A program made the translations under genes and the position numbers. 39,064 bases of DNA from IMG/VR virus record IMGVR_UViG_3300029951_000066. One strand, written 5' to 3'. The notes below the pieces were generated by a model. That model made no database searches. It saw only the letters and a program-made list of their open reading frames with translations, and had not been told where the DNA came from. Origin of the DNA: a virus. How positions within the stretch are numbered: position 1 is the stretch's first letter; the number at the start of each line of letters is the position of its first letter. This document shows, piece by piece, positions 1-39,064 of the stretch.

Positions 1-127
1 GTCAGCACCTCGTGACGCTGGTCGCCAAAGATCACGCTCGGGTGCTGGCGGTCAAGCCACATCATTCGTCCACCGCAGCACGGGTCGAGAATTGTCTTTT
101 CGGCTACGTCGCTCACGCTCCGCTCCC
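1..127. repeat. Terminal redundancy, copy 1 (identical to 38938-39064); consistent with a circular assembly overlap or a permuted/terminally redundant genome
   Basis: Direct comparison of the first 127 nt with the last 127 nt shows an exact match. Confidence 0.9.
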
Positions 128-1957
128 AGTAGCGCTAGCAGCAGCGATGCGGTCGATGCGCTCAATTTCGGCAAGGATCAATGCCCCGGCTTTAATAAGC
201 ATCCAACGCAGCGTGTCAGGTTTCCACCACTCGCGGCTCCAAGGCCACCATGGAGGAGGCTCGCAAAATGCACGCATAGGATCATTGGGCCATCCGATCG
301 CTATGTTTCCTGCATTCAGTGCATATGCTGCGGCAGCTTTCGCCATCTCCCCATTTGTATGCTCGTCATCGTGCTCGACCGTCCAACCTTCAACATTCAC
401 CTGACGAACTCGCTCGGCCAGCACATCGCGTACCGCATCACTCAGCCCGCTCGGCGCTGCTGTCTGATCGCCCATGCCAGCCGCGTAAGCATCCCGCGCT
501 ATCTGCTTGGGACTCGCGCCGTGCGCACGGTAGTCCGAATACCAACCTTCGAACCTGGAATCGCCAACGTGCCGAGTATCAGTGCTCGGCGCTGCTTGCG
601 GCTGGGCGGCGAAATAGAGAGGGAGTGTCGGGTAATGCTTCGGACGATCACCGACATCGAGCAATGGCACCGTGTTGGCCCACAACGGCCCTTGCGTCGG
701 ATGAATCGGAACATGCGCCACCACTCCCCCAGCCTCACCGATAGGGGCGCCGTGGGTTTTAAGGTGATTCTCAAATCTTGCGAATGCCTGTTGTGACTCA
801 GCACCGCGCCGGGATAATCTCCAGTTTCGAGCAAGGCTTTTTGCCGTTTCAATCCAATCTTCGCTTAAGTTTTTTTCGTGCCAAAACAGGTGCCCCGCAT
901 CAAATGACAGCGAAGAAATTTCCTTTGCCGGCATCCCGGAAAAGTCTTGTGCGGCATACCACTTCGAAAACTGCACGAGTGCGCCTCCTTCGGGGCCTGC
1001 CGTTCCTACCGGCGCAGCCTCACCGCTATGGGGCACGGGGGCGCTAGCTTGCATCCGTTCTATCTGGAAGCGGATCTGACCCAGCACCGAAAAGAGAGAG
1101 TCAAGCAGTTCAGCATCGTCCGCTGGAATAGCGCTCTCTAAACCCAGCGTCTTACAGATGCCACGCAAACGGGTTGCAGCGTAATCGTCCGTGCTCGATG
1201 CTACTTGCGGTGCCTTGGCGATCAGCGCGTCTGCATAGCCCAAGTCATATCCGAAGCTCCATGCTTCATGCATTCCTGCTGGGCACGTCATAGCCCCGTT
1301 CGGGTCGAGGCAATACCCCTCTGGCCATTTGATCTGTTTCGAGTAGCTCGGCGCTGCCGCAGGGACTATCACAGGTCCGTCAAATATGCGGTCTAGAACC
1401 GCATCCAATTGCTTGACTTGGCCCGTCGTCATGGAAAGCCGATCAGCAATCTGCGCATTAAGCAGCGCCTTCAATGCCGGGTCGCGCTTCGTATCGCCGT
1501 TGTACATAATCGGTGGAATGCTCGCATCTACCGGCACAGCGACGGGCGCAGCAGGTGCTGTTCCCGTTCCTGAGCACGATTTACACAAGTCAGCAGGCGC
1601 TTCGTCTATCCCGGTCCAAATCGAACCGTAGCCATCACATGCTTTGCAGGAGACAGCGACGAGATTGTGTTTCGCAAGCCATACTGCCAAGCTTAGAAGT
1701 GTTCCCTCGAACACTTGCTTAGCGGTGTGATCGGCCGATATTTGACCTTGCTGGTACATTTCCCAGCAATGATCCAATACGTCTTGTGTCAACCGCACCT
1801 TAACTCCCTCGCTCTTGTGGGCGATAGCTGCTTGCCAGCCGAGCCAGCAGATTTGCGCTTCGGTCGATGGGTAGTCATCGACCATCAGTGGGCCGGTATA
1901 GTTGTCAGCCCAATATTTCTCAAACGCCTCTCGGCTATCGCTAAGTTCTTTGCTCAT
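113..1957 (-). CDS. Large multidomain hypothetical protein (about 614 aa from ATG at 1957); CxxC...CxxC zinc-ribbon-like segment, three internal F-x-K/G-W-Y repeats, C-terminal acidic EHDDEH..GE motif reminiscent of MazG/DUF550-like NTP pyrophosphohydrolases
   Basis: 638-aa ORF in track; internal ATG (MSKELSDS) preceded by AGGAA RBS; stop overlaps the methyltransferase start (GTGA) in the circular sequence; domain call from motifs only. Confidence 0.6.
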   Translation of the reverse strand: MSKELSDSREAFEKYWADNYTGPLMVDDYPSTEAQICWLGWQAAIAHKSEGVKVRLTQDVLDHCWEMYQQGQISADHTAKQVFEGTLLSLAVWLAKHNLVAVSCKACDGYGSIWTGIDEAPADLCKSCSGTGTAPAAPVAVPVDASIPPIMYNGDTKRDPALKALLNAQIADRLSMTTGQVKQLDAVLDRIFDGPVIVPAAAPSYSKQIKWPEGYCLDPNGAMTCPAGMHEAWSFGYDLGYADALIAKAPQVASSTDDYAATRLRGICKTLGLESAIPADDAELLDSLFSVLGQIRFQIERMQASAPVPHSGEAAPVGTAGPEGGALVQFSKWYAAQDFSGMPAKEISSLSFDAGHLFWHEKNLSEDWIETAKSLARNWRLSRRGAESQQAFARFENHLKTHGAPIGEAGGVVAHVPIHPTQGPLWANTVPLLDVGDRPKHYPTLPLYFAAQPQAAPSTDTRHVGDSRFEGWYSDYRAHGASPKQIARDAYAAGMGDQTAAPSGLSDAVRDVLAERVRQVNVEGWTVEHDDEHTNGEMAKAAAAYALNAGNIAIGWPNDPMRAFCEPPPWWPWSREWWKPDTLRWMLIKAGALILAEIERIDRIAAASATGSGA

Positions 1958-2163
1958 GATTGTTCCTTTTCCGGGTGTGGGACTGGTTCCGAGATGCCGC
2001 AGTCCATCGGGGCCCATCCCGACGTCCACCCATCCTCTAGCTGACCATTGCGGCGTGTGTGAGGACCCATAGCAGACCGATATACGTAGAGCCCTCCCTG
2101 CTCATCGAGCCCGTACAGGTCTCCGTCTTCCCCTCCCATAGCTTGTATCTGAATGATTTTCAT
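1954..2163 (-). CDS. Hypothetical small protein (69 aa)
   Basis: ORF with strong AAGGAG RBS upstream of ATG at 2163; stop overlaps the downstream ATG (ATGA). Confidence 0.5.
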   Translation of the reverse strand: MKIIQIQAMGGEDGDLYGLDEQGGLYVYRSAMGPHTRRNGQLEDGWTSGWAPMDCGISEPVPHPEKEQS

Positions 2164-3268: not shown

Positions 3269-4033
3269 TTATGCGCCTAGCAATTCTTCGCGGCGCTGGT
3301 GGTAACGCTCGGTCGCTTCTTCGCGGTCGGCTTCGGGCAATTCGCTGATCAGGGTGGCGTCGGCGTCGAGTGCGTCGATGTCCATGCGGCTGTTCATGGT
3401 GTCGATGAGGTGCTTGGTACCGACGCTGAGTGCGGCAGGTTGGGGCTCGACGGGCGGTTGGGCGCTCGTCACACCGCCGCGCAACTCTTTCGCGCGTTCA
3501 GCATAAGCATCACTAGCTGCCTGCACGTCGCTCTCGGAGGTGAGCTTCATTGCCATCACCTTCGCCGCGTTCATCGCGTTGCGACCAGTAGCGGCCTTGA
3601 TTGCCTTGAGCACGTCATCGAGCGTTACGACCGTGAGTGGCAATATCGTATGCGTCGCTTTCTTGCCCTTCGTAGAATTCAGCGACAGCGATATTTCGCG
3701 CTCGATATTGCTCAAATGGCTGATGCGAATTCCACCCACGACCATCCCGCCGAACTTCACAGCATGATCGTTGTAAAGCGTCATGGACTTGCCGATCCAC
3801 TCGCGCCCGTCCTCACCCCACGCGAAAATCAGCAACTTGCGCATGGTCTTTCCAGGCTTGAACGGACGCCCCTGATCATCCTTGTAGTGCAGGATCACGG
3901 GCTGTTCATCATTGCCCATGCGCACGTCTGTAACGGTGATCGTCATATCGCCGTCAAGCAGTTGATCGGCGTTTAGTTGATCCGACTTCGGTACGATCGT
4001 ACTGCGAAGATTTGTGATATCAGACGTAGCCAA
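3269..4033 (-). CDS. Hypothetical protein (about 254 aa), probable TTG start; possible recombination partner of the adjacent nuclease (position only)
   Basis: ORF; AGGAGG six nt upstream of the TTG at 4033; overlaps the nuclease stop. Confidence 0.5.
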   Translation of the reverse strand: MATSDITNLRSTIVPKSDQLNADQLLDGDMTITVTDVRMGNDEQPVILHYKDDQGRPFKPGKTMRKLLIFAWGEDGREWIGKSMTLYNDHAVKFGGMVVGGIRISHLSNIEREISLSLNSTKGKKATHTILPLTVVTLDDVLKAIKAATGRNAMNAAKVMAMKLTSESDVQAASDAYAERAKELRGGVTSAQPPVEPQPAALSVGTKHLIDTMNSRMDIDALDADATLISELPEADREEATERYHQRREELLGA

Positions 4034-4931
4034 TTTCAACCTCCTGAGATTTGAATGCGTACGGCGGCAGGTCTATCGTGGTGGTGCTGTCCGCATAGCC
4101 AGGCCATACATTAGTGCGCAGGCATTCCTCGTAGATGTCCAACAGGCGGTGGACTTCGAGAAATCCTTCCTCGCGGCTCTCATTGCCTAGTTCATACGAT
4201 GCCGCGGCATATGGCCATTCGGACTCGACGGCGATAAAAATGAATTTCTCGACAGAAACATTTGCCGCTACACCATAGCCGCCAGAGTAAAAGGCATCCT
4301 GCCGGTGATAGTTCTTGCGTGCTGCGACTCTCGCAAATTCTGCTTTCGATGCGTCGCCACAGGTTTTCACATCGAGCAGCACGACTGAGCTTTTGCTGAG
4401 CGGACGCACGAAGTCAGGACGGCACCTGCATTTCACGTTGGTGATTGAATCGGTCCAGTAGCCCGACACCTCGGCGCGACCGCGCGACAGAAACTCACGA
4501 ATCTCCGGCAAAGCGCGCACGCTCTCAGCCTGCCGCATCGCCACTTCGTACTGACCGAGCGCAATCGGCAACTTCTGTTGGTTCTCAGTGGCCCACGCAG
4601 ACCACCATTCCATAGCCGCGATACTGTCATCGGACGGCTTCTTTGCATTCCACTGGGCTTCGGTGGGCTTGCGTGGCGCATTCTTCGGCGGTACTGCGTA
4701 CCGCTTGCCAAACTCTTCCGGCTCAAGAATCGCGCAGTGCGCAAGGTGGCCCTCAAGTTGCCCGGGCTTAGCGACACGAGCGGGCGCATCGGGCGACTGC
4801 CACGCATGGAAGATTGCTGGCGCCTTGTCGATCAGGTCGAGGCCTGTCTTCGAGATGCTGTCGCGATCGGCATGGTATTTCTCGATGGAGAGGTCGTAGA
4901 CGACCCTACCGGGGAACATGGAGTCATTCAT
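4020..4931 (-). CDS. PD-(D/E)XK family nuclease (phage recombination exonuclease-like)
   Basis: 303-aa ORF; RPDF...VVLLDVKT (D...D/E-x-K) and downstream Q/Y motifs typical of the PD-(D/E)XK fold; ATGA overlap with the upstream gene. Confidence 0.6.
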   Translation of the reverse strand: MNDSMFPGRVVYDLSIEKYHADRDSISKTGLDLIDKAPAIFHAWQSPDAPARVAKPGQLEGHLAHCAILEPEEFGKRYAVPPKNAPRKPTEAQWNAKKPSDDSIAAMEWWSAWATENQQKLPIALGQYEVAMRQAESVRALPEIREFLSRGRAEVSGYWTDSITNVKCRCRPDFVRPLSKSSVVLLDVKTCGDASKAEFARVAARKNYHRQDAFYSGGYGVAANVSVEKFIFIAVESEWPYAAASYELGNESREEGFLEVHRLLDIYEECLRTNVWPGYADSTTTIDLPPYAFKSQEVEIGYV

Positions 4932-5887: not shown

Positions 5888-5982
5888 GGATACCTCTGAG
5901 AGTGGTGCGGCGTCCCACCGCTGCGGCGTATGGAGCGGCCGTCGCTTAACGCTATTCGGCGTCGATCATCCGCGACAGCAGT

Positions 5983-6648
5983 TCATGCGCGGAGGCTTGG
6001 AGGGTTTTTACTGTAGGCCCCTGCGGCGGCCCATGCGGCGGCCCCTGCGGCGGCCCGTGCGGCGGCCCGTGCGGCGGCCCCTGCGGCGGCCCATGCGGCG
6101 GCCCCTGCGGCGGCCCATGCGGCGGCCCATGCGGCGGCCCCTGCGGCGGCCCATGCGGCGGCCCGTGCGGCGGCCCCTGCGGCGGCCCCTGCGGCGGCCC
6201 ATGCGTTTGCGGCTTCGGTTTTTGCCTTTTCAAGTGCTGGCATCGCAAGACGCAAGTCTTGCTCGCACGTTAAGGGTGGCAGCGCTTTCAGCGCATTAGC
6301 ATGGGGCATGAGTGCCGGCGTTAAAGTGAGCCAGGCAGCGGTATGCACGCGTACCAACCAGTCCATCGCCATCCAAGAACGCTTGCGGGAGAGTTCGGGA
6401 CCCTTGTTCGTGCCAACCAGGCGCACGATGTACTGCTTGAGCTGCTCGCGCTCTTCGTCGCAGTGCATGCCGTCGTTCCACGAGATGCCGAAAGAACGAA
6501 GCACCGGATCGACGCATTCCGGCGTGTCGCCAAACGGTTCGTTAGCGAACATGCTCACGACTTCGAGCAGGCAGTGACCATCGTCGGGCGAGCCGTGACC
6601 GCCATGATTCAGGGCGATTGCATCGAGCATTTCCAGTGTCAGTTTCAT
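5983..6648 (-). CDS. Hypothetical protein (221 aa): unique N-terminal domain of about 145 aa followed by about 16 tandem AAA[W/G/R] tetrapeptide repeats
   Basis: ORF with strong GGAGAGGAAG RBS at its ATG (6648); C-terminal third is encoded by a 12-bp tandem DNA repeat. Confidence 0.55.
   Translation of the reverse strand: MKLTLEMLDAIALNHGGHGSPDDGHCLLEVVSMFANEPFGDTPECVDPVLRSFGISWNDGMHCDEEREQLKQYIVRLVGTNKGPELSRKRSWMAMDWLVRVHTAAWLTLTPALMPHANALKALPPLTCEQDLRLAMPALEKAKTEAANAWAAAGAAAGAAARAAAWAAAGAAAWAAAWAAAGAAAWAAAGAAARAAARAAAGAAAWAAAGAYSKNPPSLRA
6018..6205. repeat. Tandem array of about 15.7 copies of a 12-bp unit (cccNtgcggcgg), with only the 4th base varying (a/c/g)
   Basis: Direct reading of the sequence; unit boundaries checked by position. 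Confidence 0.9.
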
Positions 6649-6894: not shown

Positions 6895-7188
6895 TCATGG
6901 CAATAGCGGTATTGTCCTTTTCCTCCGCTTGCGGCCTCGGACTATGGAGAACTTGACAATCGATGTGCGGTTGTCGTCGCCATTTCCGAAGTGTGCGACG
7001 AGTTCTTCTATAGACAGATCAAGCACTCGGGCTATCTGTTGAGCCTCGCCGAGCCTGACTTCTCGCTTGCCGCTGAGAGTGAGGGACATGCTTGACGGAT
7101 TCATATGGATCGCGTCCGCCAGTTCCTTCTGAGACATCTTGCGGGTCTTGAGCAATGCGCGGAACCATTTCAGGTCAATGTGTCGCAT
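6895..7188 (-). CDS. XRE-family HTH transcriptional repressor (CI-like)
   Basis: HTH motif SQKELADAIHMNPSSMSLTLSGKR; start at internal ATG (MRHIDLK) with GGAG RBS; divergent from a cro-like gene. Confidence 0.8.
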   Translation of the reverse strand: MRHIDLKWFRALLKTRKMSQKELADAIHMNPSSMSLTLSGKREVRLGEAQQIARVLDLSIEELVAHFGNGDDNRTSIVKFSIVRGRKRRKRTIPLLP

Positions 7189-7246
7189 ATTGGATACTCC
7201 AGTGGGGTAATGACAACTTGACCACCGAAGTATAGGAAAGATTCCC

Positions 7247-7275
7247 TTGAGGTGTTCTTGGTGATACGCTAATAT
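7247..7275 (+). promoter_or_regulatory. Putative sigma70-type rightward promoter (TTGAGG-17 nt-TAATAT) for the cro-like gene
   Basis: -35/-10 hexamers with 17-nt spacer; AGAGGA RBS and ATG at 7300 follow. Confidence 0.5.
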
Positions 7276-7299
7276 CAACGAAACGGAAAGAGGACTGCT

Positions 7300-10505: not shown

Positions 10506-10661
10506 ATGCCAGCAGCTAAACAGGGCGAGAAGCTTTCCGACTTCCTCTCGCGGTTTGTGTCATCGAAACGTGAGGATCGCAAGTACTCGAACGTCAAGCA
10601 GCGCCTTGCTTTGGGCTACTCGGAAGCCAGAGAGCAGGCCAAGAAAGGAGTTAGGTCATGA
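10506..10661 (+). CDS. Possible small protein (51 aa)
   Basis: Manual translation with GGAGAG RBS; stop overlaps the HNH start (ATGA). Confidence 0.35.
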   Translation: MPAAKQGEKLSDFLSRFVSSKREDRKYSNVKQRLALGYSEAREQAKKGVRS

Positions 10662-11152
10662 GACGAATTGCGATCGCTAGGTTACATTTTTTGTTGCGCC
10701 TCGATGAAGCGACCGGGTTCCTGTGCTGGCGAGGGGCTAGCTTAGGGCATCACGCCGACGATCGCGCCGGAAGCCTGAAGAGCGATGGGTATCGCCGGGT
10801 CTACATCGATGGTTCGCGCATCTATGAGCACCGAATCACGTTCGCGATGACAAATGGTCGTTGGCCAGATTTGCACGTTGACCATGCCAACGGAGTACGT
10901 GATGACAATCGTCCCTGCAATCTTCGCGAGGCAACAAGGTCCCAAAACAATGCAAATAGTAAGATTTCTTTGCGTAACACCAGTGGGCTCAAGGGTGTCG
11001 GGTTCCACAAGCAAATAGGTAGATTCAGGGCCGACATACGGATTGAGGGGAGCCTCAAGTACCTCGGCCTATTCGATAGCGCAGAAGAGGCGCATGCCGC
11101 CTATATGCGAGCAGCGCAGCAATTCCATGGCCAATTCGCGAGGGCAGCATGA
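10658..11152 (+). CDS. HNH homing endonuclease with AP2-type DNA-binding domain
   Basis: Motifs HVDHANGVRDDNRPCNLREATRSQN (HNH) and SGLKGVGFHK...YLGLFDSAEEAHAAY (AP2-like); AAAGGAG RBS. Confidence 0.8.
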   Translation: MRRIAIARLHFLLRLDEATGFLCWRGASLGHHADDRAGSLKSDGYRRVYIDGSRIYEHRITFAMTNGRWPDLHVDHANGVRDDNRPCNLREATRSQNNANSKISLRNTSGLKGVGFHKQIGRFRADIRIEGSLKYLGLFDSAEEAHAAYMRAAQQFHGQFARAA

Positions 11153-21300: not shown

Positions 21301-22289
21301 CCATTGGAACCACTACGGCAGAGAGCCTCATCAAAGGGGCGCTGCGTCGCATCAATTCGTATCAGTCTGGCGAGCAGCTCGCGGAGTTCGACGCTGCGGA
21401 TTGTTTGGACACGCTGAACGATTTGCTCGACTCGCTCAGCCTGGATAAAGACCATATATTTGGCTCGCAGGAAAACATTCTTTCGTGGACGGCGCAGCAG
21501 CGCCTGTACAAGATAGGCAATCCGGTATGCACCCTGCTCGGACTGCAGCCTTTTACCGGGACTCTAACGGCAGGCTCACCGGTCATAGCCGGAATTACCA
21601 ACCTGCCGCCGCAGCTTGTCTCCGGACAGAATCCGGCTTTTCAGGTTGGCTCCGGCTCGATCCTGTCAGATGCGCAGGGACTGATTCCGGTCAATGCCAC
21701 AGTGCTGTCGGTAACGCCGACGACCATAACGATGTCTGCGCCGGCGATCGGAAACTCTGCCGGCCTGGATAGCATCACCTTCACAGTCCCCGGTGACTTG
21801 CCGATTCCGCGCCCGCTGCGCATCACGCACGGATTCACACGCTTCAATGCGCTCGATTTCACGCTTGACGTCTACGCTACGGAAACACAGTACACGCAAT
21901 TCCTATACAAGGCCCAGCCTGGGCCGTGGCCTACCGTGGCATGGTACAACAATACGTTCCCGTATGGCCTTCTGAATGTCTACCAGACCCCGGGTAACAG
22001 CACAGAGTGCCATCTGTTCACGGATACGATCCTACAAAATCTTACGTTGCAGCAAGTCCTTGTCATGCCTCAGGGCTACAGCCGAATGCTCAAGTGGCTG
22101 CTCGCGAAAGAAATCTGTGCGGAGTATGGCTTCCCGCTTACTCCGGCCATCACGTTGAATGCGAAGGAGGCGCGAGAGTTTGTAAAAGCGCTCAATGCGA
22201 AGCCGGCGAACGTGTCGAACTATGACCGTGAGCTGTCGCGAGGGAACAGGCCCGATGGCGGATGGGTGACTCATGGAGGTTACCGATAA
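21297..22289 (+). CDS. Putative head-tail adaptor or tail tube protein (330 aa)
   Basis: ORF with GGGAG RBS; position in structural module. Confidence 0.5.
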   Translation: MTIGTTTAESLIKGALRRINSYQSGEQLAEFDAADCLDTLNDLLDSLSLDKDHIFGSQENILSWTAQQRLYKIGNPVCTLLGLQPFTGTLTAGSPVIAGITNLPPQLVSGQNPAFQVGSGSILSDAQGLIPVNATVLSVTPTTITMSAPAIGNSAGLDSITFTVPGDLPIPRPLRITHGFTRFNALDFTLDVYATETQYTQFLYKAQPGPWPTVAWYNNTFPYGLLNVYQTPGNSTECHLFTDTILQNLTLQQVLVMPQGYSRMLKWLLAKEICAEYGFPLTPAITLNAKEAREFVKALNAKPANVSNYDRELSRGNRPDGGWVTHGGYR

Positions 22290-23929
22290 TGCCAGGCGGT
22301 AATAACGGACCTCTGAACCTGTTCGGTGATTTTGGCCTGGCTGGCGGTCAGGACAATGCGCCTAACCATCTGCAAGACGATCAGATGTGCATCAACATGT
22401 ACGCCGAGGTCGATCCGGGCAACTCCAAAGAGGTGCTTGGTCTGCTGGGTTGCCCAGGCCTAAACCAACTTGTCGCCGCACCTGTCGCCGGGGCCGGTGC
22501 GCCCGGATTCACTTCGACAATGACCGTGTGGCCCATGCCGTACTCCGGCCCTTCGCTGGAGGTGCGCGGGCTGTGGGAGCTTCCGGCCAATAACGACACG
22601 GTGCCGAACGGGACGGGTAGCACGGTCGATACGACAGCCCTAGCGGTCATTGGAAACACTTGCTATCTCGTCACTGCGACAATGACGGCGCCCACCGTGT
22701 TTCCCACCTTGTCTCTGACTTCGGTCGGTACGCTCCAAACCAGCACCGGCCCCGTGCACATCCGCGACAACAATACGGGCGGCGGCAACGCCGTGATCGT
22801 AGATGGCCCGAACGGTTATCTCTATGACATAGCGACGCAGGCCTTCACTCAGATCAACGATCCGAGTTTTCTAGGCTCAGATACGGTTGCCTATATCGAC
22901 GGTTGGTGGATCTTCAACAAGCCGGGCACACAGACGTTCTATTCGAACTCGCAGCCGTATAGCCTGACGTTCAATGCGCTGTTCTTCGCACTCAAGGATG
23001 CCGCGGCTGACAACCTCGTGGCCGTGATCGAGAACAAAGAGCTGCTGTGGTTGATAGGCGATAAGACGACAGAGATTTGGTACAACGCTGGCGGCGCGCC
23101 AGGTGGTGTAGGCGCGACCTTTGCCTTTCAGCGCATTGTCGGCACCCTTTTGCAGGTCGGTTGCAAGGCTAAACACTCGGTGGCTCGCTATGGGTCCCAG
23201 GGTCAGGAAGGGTTGATCTGGTTCGGGCGGTCGGAGCGCGGCGAGAATGTGATCGTGCGGACGCAAGGCTTTCTCGATCAGGTCATATCTACGCCTTCTT
23301 TCGGTGCGGAGGTGGCCACATACGCGACCACCGACGACGCAATCGGATACACCTATCAGGAAGACACGCATGAATTCTATGTGCTGATATTCCCGACCGC
23401 AGACACGTGCTGGTGCTATGACGGGCAATCAGGGCTGCTGCACAAGCGCCTTTCGTACGATCCGTATGCAAAGGAGTTCCATCGCCACCGTTCGAACGCA
23501 TTCATGAACTTCCAGGGTATGCGCGTCGTTGGCGACTATCAAAACGGGGCTCTGTACCAACTTACGAGAGCCGCCTATACCGATGCTGGCTGGCCACTGC
23601 TGGCAAAGCGACGCGCACCACATATTTGGGACGGCGGGCAACGCGGACGTGTTTTCATGCAAAGCCTACAACTCGATTTTAACGTTGGGGTCGGCAACCC
23701 AAGCGGCATGGGTACGAATCCGCGCTGCGGACTCTCGATCTCTCGCGATGGCGGCAGGACATTCGGCGATCGTATGTATGCGCCGATGGGTGCAATAGGT
23801 GAGTATCGCACACGCACGATGTGGCGCAAGCTAGGCTGGGGCCGGGATAATGTGGTCGATCTGGAAGTGATCGATCCAGTGAATCGCGACCTTGTTGGTG
23901 CAACGATGAAAGCATTCAGTTCAGCATGA
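22289..23929 (+). CDS. Putative tail structural protein (546 aa)
   Basis: ORF with GGAGG RBS at the internal ATG (MPGGNNGP); large beta-rich protein in the tail region. Confidence 0.55.
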   Translation: MPGGNNGPLNLFGDFGLAGGQDNAPNHLQDDQMCINMYAEVDPGNSKEVLGLLGCPGLNQLVAAPVAGAGAPGFTSTMTVWPMPYSGPSLEVRGLWELPANNDTVPNGTGSTVDTTALAVIGNTCYLVTATMTAPTVFPTLSLTSVGTLQTSTGPVHIRDNNTGGGNAVIVDGPNGYLYDIATQAFTQINDPSFLGSDTVAYIDGWWIFNKPGTQTFYSNSQPYSLTFNALFFALKDAAADNLVAVIENKELLWLIGDKTTEIWYNAGGAPGGVGATFAFQRIVGTLLQVGCKAKHSVARYGSQGQEGLIWFGRSERGENVIVRTQGFLDQVISTPSFGAEVATYATTDDAIGYTYQEDTHEFYVLIFPTADTCWCYDGQSGLLHKRLSYDPYAKEFHRHRSNAFMNFQGMRVVGDYQNGALYQLTRAAYTDAGWPLLAKRRAPHIWDGGQRGRVFMQSLQLDFNVGVGNPSGMGTNPRCGLSISRDGGRTFGDRMYAPMGAIGEYRTRTMWRKLGWGRDNVVDLEVIDPVNRDLVGATMKAFSSA

Positions 23930-36152: not shown

Positions 36153-36626
36153 ATGGGTGCCGTAACCTTCCAATTCGTCGAGGGGAGGGGCCTCAGCTCC
36201 TCTCTAATTGAATGGTTTGATCACGACCGTTACTCTCATGTCGATCTCGTCTTGCGAGACGGCACGTTGCTAGGCGCCCGCGACGATATGATTCTAGGCA
36301 TACCGGCAGGTGTGCAGATTCGCCCGTCCAGTTATGTGGACGGGGAATCAGTTCTCAGGGTGTCGGTGCCGTGCACAGACGAGCAGGAAGCGGCGTTCTA
36401 CGCCTATGCTCAAGAACAGGTGGGGAAGCCATATGACCAAGAAGCCATTGCCGCCTTTGTGGTGGGTCGGAATTGGCGCGATCCTAACGACTGGTACTGC
36501 TCTGAGCTGGGCGCTGCTTGCACTGAGAAAAGCGGGATTGTTCCGCCGTTGATTGCGCCTTGCAACAAGATAGCGCCTGGAGATTTGGCGCTGCTTTTGT
36601 CTGCTCTGGTTGAGATTCAGCCGTGA
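36153..36626 (+). CDS. Putative permuted papain-fold cysteine peptidase (YiiX/C92-like), possible second cell-wall hydrolase
   Basis: His-then-Cys order (YSHVDLVL ... WYCSELGAAC) reminiscent of the permuted NlpC/P60-like amidase family. Confidence 0.45.
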   Translation: MGAVTFQFVEGRGLSSSLIEWFDHDRYSHVDLVLRDGTLLGARDDMILGIPAGVQIRPSSYVDGESVLRVSVPCTDEQEAAFYAYAQEQVGKPYDQEAIAAFVVGRNWRDPNDWYCSELGAACTEKSGIVPPLIAPCNKIAPGDLALLLSALVEIQP

Positions 36627-37108
36627 TTAGCGAACTCTCCGTGAAGTCTTTCCCTGGCCTCATGAAGAGCGTTGCCAGCCTCTTCCTTCGATATGAAATA
36701 TCCCACGCATTTTTGCTTCCCATTGGATTGAAGTCGAGCTACCCATCTCGCACTGTATTTATGCCAAAACACTCCTTTTATTCCAGAAGTGTTATCAGTT
36801 CTAATCGACGCGTTTTGGGCGTTCTGCGAGTGTGTAGCATGCCTCAGATTAAAGAAGCTATCGTCCGATCTGCAGGTATTGCGATGGTCTATTTCATGTT
36901 CAGGGAAGACGCCGGTCATATATAACCAGGCGAGCCTGTTGGCCTTGTAGTTTTTGTTATCGACCATGATCTTTCTGTAGCCATCCGGCTCTATTGATCC
37001 TGCTAGATCGCCAGGCTTCAGACGATTAGAGGAAGGCTTGACCCAAGTGAATATCCCTGTTTCGGGATCATAGTGAAGGACTTCTTTTAGGCGTTCTTGA
37101 GTAAGCAT
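36617..37108 (-). CDS. HNH homing endonuclease with AP2-type DNA-binding domain (paralogue of the 10658 gene)
   Basis: Motifs ERLKEVLHYDPETGIFTW, EIDHRNTCRSDDSFFNLRHATHSQN, SGIKGVFWHK...VGYFISKEEAGNA; GGAG RBS at ATG 37108. Confidence 0.8.
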   Translation of the reverse strand: MLTQERLKEVLHYDPETGIFTWVKPSSNRLKPGDLAGSIEPDGYRKIMVDNKNYKANRLAWLYMTGVFPEHEIDHRNTCRSDDSFFNLRHATHSQNAQNASIRTDNTSGIKGVFWHKYSARWVARLQSNGKQKCVGYFISKEEAGNALHEARERLHGEFANHG

Positions 37109-37198
37109 TTGATCTCCGGTCAAGGAAGTCTGTGGTGTGCGGCAAGCGTTGACTAGACGCTGTTCGGATGCCTCCTAGCCGCACTAAAATCATACCAT

Positions 37199-38205: not shown

Positions 38206-38532
38206 TCAAGATCCTTTGGTACGGGCAGCGTCGATAGCTTCGTCTACGGTTTCCGGCTTGAACTTAACGCCATGGAATGCCTTTCCCACTGAAAGGTAGA
38301 ATGCGCATATCCCCGGCTCGCTCTTATCGCGCAGCCACCTATACCGCTCTGCATCAACTGCTAGCGCCTCGACCGCCGAGCGGAGTTTCGCTATTGCTTC
38401 TCGGTGCTTTTTGGAATCAGCCCCAGGAACGTAGCCCATCAGAGGAATTGCCAGGGTCTCGCATTCAAAGGCCAAAAGCATAACCTGCTCGACCGTTGGC
38501 GCTACTGTGGGGTTGGGTGTTGGGGTGGTCAT
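38206..38532 (-). CDS. Hypothetical protein (108 aa)
   Basis: ORF; ATGA overlap with the methyltransferase stop. Confidence 0.5.
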   Translation of the reverse strand: MTTPTPNPTVAPTVEQVMLLAFECETLAIPLMGYVPGADSKKHREAIAKLRSAVEALAVDAERYRWLRDKSEPGICAFYLSVGKAFHGVKFKPETVDEAIDAARTKGS

Positions 38533-39053
38533 GATTTATCTCCATGCGCAGCGGTCTTCATAAAGACGAGCCAGTGTGTGAGCCCTTTGCGGCCGCTTAG
38601 ATGGCCAAAGAGCGGCTTGACCTCAGCCAACGCCAAAACCTCACTCACCTTGATCTGCGTTTCATTCCACTTGAAGATCAAAACGCCATCCACGGAGAGC
38701 ACGCGAAAGCACTCTGCGAAGCCTCTGCGTAGGTCGTCGCGCCAGTCGGGACCGAGTTGGCCATACTTAGCTGCCAACCAACTCTTGGCTCCAGCACGCA
38801 CCAAATGCGGCGGATCGAACGAAACCAGTTTGAAAGCGCCGTCCGAATACGGCAAAGCACGGAAATCCAGCATCACGTCAGGCTCAATGCGGAGCGTGCG
38901 CGTGCCGCTGTCGTTACCATGCGAGCGGTCAGTAACGGTCAGCACCTCGTGACGCTGGTCGCCAAAGATCACGCTCGGGTGCTGGCGGTCAAGCCACATC
39001 ATTCGTCCACCGCAGCACGGGTCGAGAATTGTCTTTTCGGCTACGTCGCTCAC
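38529..39053 (-). CDS. Small SAM-dependent DNA methyltransferase-like protein (amino-methyltransferase motifs I and IV), orphan; GTG start lies in the terminal repeat
   Basis: Motif I-like ILDPCCGG and motif IV-like DPPH (DPPY variant); GGAG RBS; no adjacent restriction endonuclease gene. Confidence 0.55.
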   Translation of the reverse strand: MSDVAEKTILDPCCGGRMMWLDRQHPSVIFGDQRHEVLTVTDRSHGNDSGTRTLRIEPDVMLDFRALPYSDGAFKLVSFDPPHLVRAGAKSWLAAKYGQLGPDWRDDLRRGFAECFRVLSVDGVLIFKWNETQIKVSEVLALAEVKPLFGHLSGRKGLTHWLVFMKTAAHGDKS

Positions 39054-39064
39054 GCTCCGCTCCC
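38938..39064. repeat. Terminal redundancy, copy 2 (identical to 1-127)
   Basis: Exact 127-nt identity with the window start. Confidence 0.9.

Follow-up and report, generated by a model that had tools for sequence, protein, structure and literature searches.

The closest described relatives of the gene reported here are the members of PHROG 954, which contains gp50 of Listeria phage A118 (ORF50, recorded as 'putative methyltransferase'), homologues in Lactobacillus phage A2 and Enterococcus phiFL, gp48 of the halovirus HSTV-1, and proteins of Streptococcus Javan prophages and of Acinetobacter, Vibrio and Gordonia phages. The gene lies in the IMG/VR virus record IMGVR_UViG_3300029951_000066, a stretch of 39,064 nucleotides that is called the window below, and the open reading frame (ORF) of 174 residues which the sequence-only reading had placed at 38529-39053 is present there, on the minus strand and with a GTG start. 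Its product is 33-77% identical to members of the A118 gp50 family across more than 90% of the length, and has in common with them the motifs, the single domain of 148-180 residues and the position in an early replication or recombination module. No essential difference separates them, and the subgroup of Proteobacteria phages, which includes this gene, shows a hairpin eight residues longer. The gene is a new metagenomic member of a family long annotated in databases, at least since the A118 record AJ242593, which we take to date from about 2000. According to the structural model, its product is a minimal class I S-adenosylmethionine (SAM)-dependent methyltransferase, and its substrate is likely DNA, judging from the phage context and the frequent adjacency of family members to bona fide DNA methyltransferases.

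Other described enzymes resemble the protein in part. The small phage Dam/CcrM-like enzymes (PamA among them), which have 179-218 residues and produce N6-methyladenine (m6A) in GATC or GANTC, are likewise small orphans near phage replication genes (PMC5537653; PMC12435837), but they show NPPW/F/Y where the phage protein shows DPPH. M.TaqI, a gamma-class N6-adenine methyltransferase with NPPY, has motif I before motif IV, a (D/N)PP-aromatic loop after strand beta4 and the class I fold, whereas its large C-terminal DNA-recognition domain has no counterpart in the phage protein, which shows H in place of Y and gives no match to Pfam N6_Mtase. Trm11, TrmN/Trm14, RsmC, RsmD and N6AMT1/KMT9 are among the best structural matches and show a compact class I fold with DPPY, DPPF or NPPY after beta4, but they have extra RNA-binding domains (THUMP and others) or a Trm112 partner; the likeness to these RNA and protein amino-methyltransferases is generic (13-20% identity, template modelling score about 0.5). 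The PADLOC models MTase_II and oMTase match over the full length, and they reflect classification, not assayed DNA methylation; no cognate endonuclease is present here. The Pfam family PF05869 (Dam), which we assume to be that of the small Dam/CcrM-like enzymes, gives no match to the methyltransferase in the Pfam scan, and an Aeromonas prophage contains a PF05869 protein and a family member side by side.

The first alignment used for AlphaFold contained 35 sequences of 71-99% identity and gave an unusable model, with a predicted local distance difference test score (pLDDT) of 59. The second alignment was widened with Firmicutes-phage and archaeal-virus homologues, and the model from this diverse alignment shows a pLDDT of 89.6 and a predicted template modelling score of 0.86. 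In it, beta1 (residues 9-11) is followed by motif I, beta2 (28-32) ends in D32, a hairpin is located between beta2 and D63-F64, beta4 (74-79) leads into DPPH, and a long helix (104-118) together with additional strands makes up the remainder of the domain. The gene and the elements of its product are:

38529-39053, minus strand: methyltransferase coding sequence, 174 residues, GTG start and TGA stop, assigned by phrog_954, PADLOC MTase_II and the AlphaFold model.
39006-39023, minus strand: motif I, DPCCGG, residues 11-16, the SAM-binding loop after beta1.
38958-38960, minus strand: D32, the acidic residue of motif II at the end of beta2, nearly invariant in 118 sequences.
38883-38957, minus strand: beta-hairpin insertion between motifs II and III, residues 33-57, with model strands 36-41 and 51-56.
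38862-38867, minus strand: D63-F64, motif III-like, with D63 invariant in the 118 sequences.
38805-38816, minus strand: motif IV, DPPH, residues 80-83, directly after beta4.

The fold, the SAM loop after beta1 and the acidic residue ending beta2 are those of class I (Rossmann-like) SAM methyltransferases, which are built on a seven-stranded beta-sheet and in whose general architecture the residue equivalent to D32 would contact the SAM ribose. In the alignment of 118 family members, at least 90% of the sequences retain L10, D11 and G15, and 18 residues are invariant, among them D80, P81, P82 and H83, haloarchaeal virus members included. Motif I, an acidic end of beta2, D63-F64 and a DPP-type loop after beta4 form the arrangement of enzymes that methylate exocyclic amino groups. 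In the phage protein F79-D80-P81-P82-H83 comes immediately after strand 74-79, which is where amino-methyltransferases have their catalytic (D/N/S)PP(Y/F/W/H) loop, and the invariance of DPPH across the family suggests that an exocyclic amino group is methylated. DPCCGG and DPPH had been described from the sequence as about 75 residues apart; both motifs are present, at a spacing of 69 residues. A scan of the window for (D/N/S)PP(Y/F/W/H) found DPPH as the only match in a plausible coding ORF; the other match, SPPF at 23482-23493 (plus strand), is in an ORF of 86 residues overlapped by the head-closure gene at 22262-23929.

The matches to phrog_954 and MTase_II and the 6190 homologues indicate that the ORF is not a chance one. 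The phrog_954 profile, annotated as 'DNA methyltransferase', matches residues 5-170 with an E value of 1.1e-68, and the REBASE-derived PADLOC models match with 4.5e-76 (MTase_II, PDLC03288) and 1.8e-45 (oMTase, PDLC03730). The full-length profile match and the invariant residues in common place the protein in the PHROG 954/A118 gp50 family. At the 90% identity level, 6190 clusters match the methyltransferase with E values of 1e-3 or lower, and at least 8000 clusters match a Listeria phage family member; at the 50% identity level, 340 clusters are found below 1e-30, nearly all of them single-domain proteins of 150-250 residues. No domain fusion that could serve as a substrate clue was found among the top 150 family representatives. 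The family is carried by 252 phage records, which include phages of Streptococcus, Vibrio, Acinetobacter, Porphyromonas, Listeria (A118 ORF50), Gordonia, Lactobacillus (A2) and Enterococcus (phiFL), and haloarchaeal viruses. Identity to the protein is 50% for A118 ORF50, about 50% for the Firmicutes-phage members and 33% for HSTV-1, and by these values conservation is unusually high for a phage gene. The family contains thousands of members, from Proteobacteria phages to haloarchaeal viruses, has no Pfam model, and no solved structure was found for it; NCBIfam gave nothing significant, and the BFVD fold search returned one member of the same family and nothing else.

Searches with PHROGs, Pfam and PADLOC revealed no restriction endonuclease in the window, and the only endonucleases found are two HNH-AP2 homing-type genes. 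Neighbouring genes were clustered for 79 related loci of bacterial genomes, among which the best are from Betaproteobacteria. The one neighbour that recurs is a tyrosine integrase, in 23 loci; six loci contain serine recombinases, six a C5 DNA methyltransferase upstream and three a ParB-N6_N4 methyltransferase, and no endonuclease cluster appears. Since no restriction enzyme was found in the window and none recurs in the related loci, the methyltransferase is an orphan, as had been proposed, and is not paired as in type II restriction-modification systems. Across the 252 phage records, the homologues sit in replication or recombination modules. A C5 enzyme adjoins the family member in Gordonia phage Bosnia, Akkermansia phage Chantilly and a relative on a JGI (Joint Genome Institute) contig, and other adjoining DNA methyltransferases are an adenine enzyme in Streptococcus phage Javan486, a Dam-domain protein in Aeromonas and a DNA methyltransferase in HSTV-1.

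The substrate is probably phage DNA, methylated at N6 of adenine or N4 of cytosine, with protection from host restriction as the outcome. A DNA substrate is favoured because the spread over unrelated hosts (bacterial phyla, haloarchaeal viruses) fits a universal substrate, because the genes are located in replication and recombination modules beside other DNA methyltransferases, and because of the REBASE and PHROG classification. Phage m6A methyltransferases of 179 residues are experimentally active and sequence-specific (PMC5537653), so small size is no argument against a DNA substrate. The orphan amino-methyltransferase of this temperate-type phage would be expressed from the early leftward operon alongside recombination genes and would methylate the phage DNA during replication, and the methylated progeny genomes would be shielded from host restriction endonucleases. 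Since there is no separate target-recognition domain, the target would be recognised through hairpin 33-57 and the loop after motif IV, an arrangement that suggests a short or relaxed target sequence. These segments appear to be the best candidates for substrate recognition because their length differs between subgroups: the hairpin is eight residues shorter in the Firmicutes-phage members and different in the archaeal-virus members, and the length of the loop varies among the proteobacterial, Firmicutes and archaeal subgroups. For the phage of the window, the gene is a routine accessory gene of temperate phages, whose presence suggests a protective methyl mark on phage DNA.

Several results weigh against a DNA substrate. 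The curated DNA-methyltransferase families of Pfam (N6_N4_Mtase, N6_Mtase, MethyltransfD12, Dam, MT-A70) give no match, and the Pfam scan at E values up to 10 returned nothing but Methyltransf_11, whose score of 15 bits (E 0.04) is below the cutoff of 21.2. The model shows no target-recognition domain or similar DNA-binding module, the hairpin and the loops being the only additions to a single domain. RNA, protein and small-molecule methyltransferases lead the Foldseek results (Bud23, Trm11, nucleomethylin and KMT9/N6AMT1 at the top), with M.TaqI at rank 36, and the structural similarity to RNA and protein amino-methyltransferases is equally good. The profile search against PDB sequences is weak and mixed, with PH0226 at 3e-4, RsmD (2ift) at 0.12 and an N4C DNA methyltransferase at 0.25. 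Labels such as 'DNA/cytosine methyltransferase', including the note on A118 ORF50, look like propagated annotations, and no published biochemistry or methylome assignment was found in the literature for any family member. The DNA substrate of the family is an assumption, and a very common phage 'DNA methyltransferase' annotation rests on motif inference for proteins with no obvious DNA-recognition module.

In favour of an amino-methyltransferase, the structural matches include enzymes with (D/N)PP(Y/F), namely Trm11, TrmN, RsmC, N6AMT1/KMT9, TrmM and M.TaqI. The PDB search by single sequence gave weak generic matches only. With hhalign, the family profile aligned with the single sequence of a ParB-N6_N4 enzyme over the motif IV region alone (E 0.0098) and gave no alignment with the sequence of the Javan486 adenine methyltransferase. 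The modelled fold confirms a methyltransferase and does not separate a DNA substrate from an RNA, protein or small-molecule one. The sequence-only reading had taken the gene for an orphan phage DNA methyltransferase with anti-restriction or regulatory function and had regarded assignment to an RNA or protein methyltransferase fold as contrary to it. Its description of the gene is accurate, the methyltransferase fold and the orphan status stand, and the DNA substrate and the protective role are putative; that interpretation is reasonable and partly supported.

The protein could also be, with rather low probability, an RNA amino-methyltransferase (producing for example N2-methylguanine or m6A in host tRNA or rRNA) or a protein Gln/Lys methyltransferase, through which the phage would modify a component of host translation or blunt a defence that targets RNA or protein. 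The matches to RsmD and to Trm11 (E 0.64) in the profile searches and the label RlmK/RlmI given by JGI to one member are in keeping with this. A conserved macromolecule as target would also agree with the missing target-recognition domain and with the very strong conservation, members from Proteobacteria phages being about 50% identical to those from Firmicutes phages. However, the gene travels with DNA methyltransferases and with replication and recombination genes, and we know of no precedent for so widespread a phage RNA or protein amino-methyltransferase. It is likewise conceivable, if somewhat unlikely, that the activity is something other than the usual sequence-specific methylation of duplex DNA, either non-specific or single-strand DNA methylation during replication, which would give broad anti-restriction, or action on a conserved host RNA or protein; the annotation of a very widespread and conserved phage 'DNA methyltransferase' would then be wrong or incomplete.

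Methylation of DNA chiefly for epigenetic regulation (phage expression, replication timing or lysogen physiology), and not for anti-restriction, seems improbable. The orphan gene is part of an early operon in a temperate-type genome with a repressor-like gene at 6895-7278, the prophage orphan methyltransferase PamA can reprogram host gene expression (PMC12435837), and a role in replication has been proposed for phage CcrM-like enzymes (PMC5537653), but the hosts of this family have unrelated regulatory systems, which generic protection fits better. A small-molecule methyltransferase of the Methyltransf_11 type, with a metabolite or nucleotide-level substrate, is very improbable, since the precomputed labels PF08241 or PF13649 on many family members contrast with a Pfam match below threshold, with similarity limited to the generic SAM-binding and helix alphaD-strand beta5 segments, and with an invariant DPPH after beta4 that is, to our knowledge, foreign to Methyltransf_11 enzymes.

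The gene is part of an early operon, and its surroundings in the genome contain the following features:

1-127: terminal repeat, copy 1, in which the 5' end of the methyltransferase gene is repeated at 1-116.
38938-39064: terminal repeat, copy 2, the assembly overlap.
39060-39064, minus strand: Shine-Dalgarno-like GGGAG, six nucleotides upstream of the GTG, read from the sequence.
113-2029, minus strand: upstream operon gene, up to 638 residues, no assigned function, its TGA overlapping the methyltransferase GTG (GTGA).
38206-38532, minus strand: downstream operon gene, 108 residues, its ATG overlapping the methyltransferase TGA by four nucleotides (ATGA).

The two copies of the direct repeat are of 127 nucleotides and 100% identical. 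Circular or circularly permuted genomes usually show such an exact end repeat when they are assembled with overlap, and the genome is of this type, with a unique length of 38,937 bp and a guanine-plus-cytosine (GC) content of 56%, the repeat marking the overlap. The first 116 nucleotides of the methyltransferase ORF, that is 38 codons and two nucleotides, are inside the repeat, in agreement with the 38 codons counted earlier. The gene had also been said to span the circular junction, so that annotation of the linear contig would truncate or duplicate it; the 5' end is indeed duplicated, but the linear window contains the whole gene, ribosome-binding site included, and the gene is split across the junction only if repeat copy 2 is trimmed. 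The junction issue is therefore cosmetic.

The annotation hazard is the choice of start codon and not the circular junction, because the gene is intact in the window and the gene call in the 99% identical relative on the 65.7-kb JGI contig Ga0500009_000379 (L008), made from an internal ATG, loses motif I. The GTG is the sole canonical start codon upstream of motif I, the segment (V/I)LDPCCG(G/S) is kept by all close homologues, and the L008 relative shows the same GGGAGCGGAnC-GTGA arrangement. Its methyltransferase gene (5950-6474 of that contig) is called from an ATG 17 codons downstream, which gives 157 residues. The same miscall may have truncated the N-terminus in several database entries of the family.

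When the genome is wrapped, the methyltransferase GTG (116-114) overlaps the TGA of the upstream gene (115-113) by four nucleotides, and the four-nucleotide overlaps with both neighbours show that the methyltransferase gene is an internal member of a long early leftward operon. This operon begins near the repressor-like gene and also contains a RecE-like exonuclease gene at 4020-4931 (phrog_412, DUF3799) and small genes with no assigned function. The GC content of the methyltransferase gene, overall and at third codon positions, is in line with the rest of the genome, and the scan for promoters and terminators around it gave nothing above chance. The downstream protein of 108 residues shows weak PHROG matches and none in Pfam or PADLOC. 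The upstream protein of up to 638 residues was considered as a DNA-recognition partner, an idea that was dropped because phages of Pararheinheimera, Pseudomonas, Gordonia, Akkermansia, Listeria and Streptococcus have unrelated genes upstream of the methyltransferase. There is therefore no conserved partner able to supply recognition, and no such cluster recurs in the 79 loci. Its C-terminal domain, of about 115 residues (about 521-634) with the motif EGWTVEHDDEHTNGEMAKAAAAYAL, matches at least nine PHROGs of unknown function with E values down to 1.5e-37 and no Pfam family, and appears to be an uncharacterised domain that is common in phages and joined to different N-terminal regions. An ORF of 182 residues is antisense to the methyltransferase gene (38404-38952, plus strand), and comparable antisense or out-of-frame ORFs are found in 57-63 of the 79 related loci; these are regarded as shadow ORFs, not genes, and we ascribe their recurrence to the high degree of conservation of the methyltransferase DNA.

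The rest of the genome shows a temperate-like layout, with the repressor-like gene, the RecE-like exonuclease and a Holliday-junction resolvase, and the plus strand contains the terminase, portal, scaffold, major head and tail genes. No integrase was seen in the subset of window ORFs scanned, and many relatives of the methyltransferase locus adjoin integrases. A nucleotide search with 25 kb of the window (the structural half) against 50,697 phage records gave no near match. The HNH-AP2 homing-type endonuclease genes are paralogues, at 36617-37123 (minus strand) and 10658-11152 (plus strand), and match phrog_99 with E values of 1e-68 and 2e-58; the first shows a GC content of 0.47 against 0.56 for the genome, which suggests recent insertion. 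The region 5968-6241, inside an ORF at 5983-6648 (minus strand), contains about 16-20 tandem copies of a 12-nucleotide unit, GGCCCNTGCGGC (plus strand), which encode AAA[G/W/R] tetrapeptides at the C-terminus of a protein of 221 residues with no match in PHROG or Pfam. In Gordonia, Akkermansia and Streptococcus phages (L003 1475-3474; L004 1512-3468; L007 3001-4237), the small methyltransferase gene shares a few bases with an overlapping gene for a C5-cytosine or adenine DNA methyltransferase, and these pairs are methyltransferase cassettes of two genes in phages whose hosts are very distant from one another.
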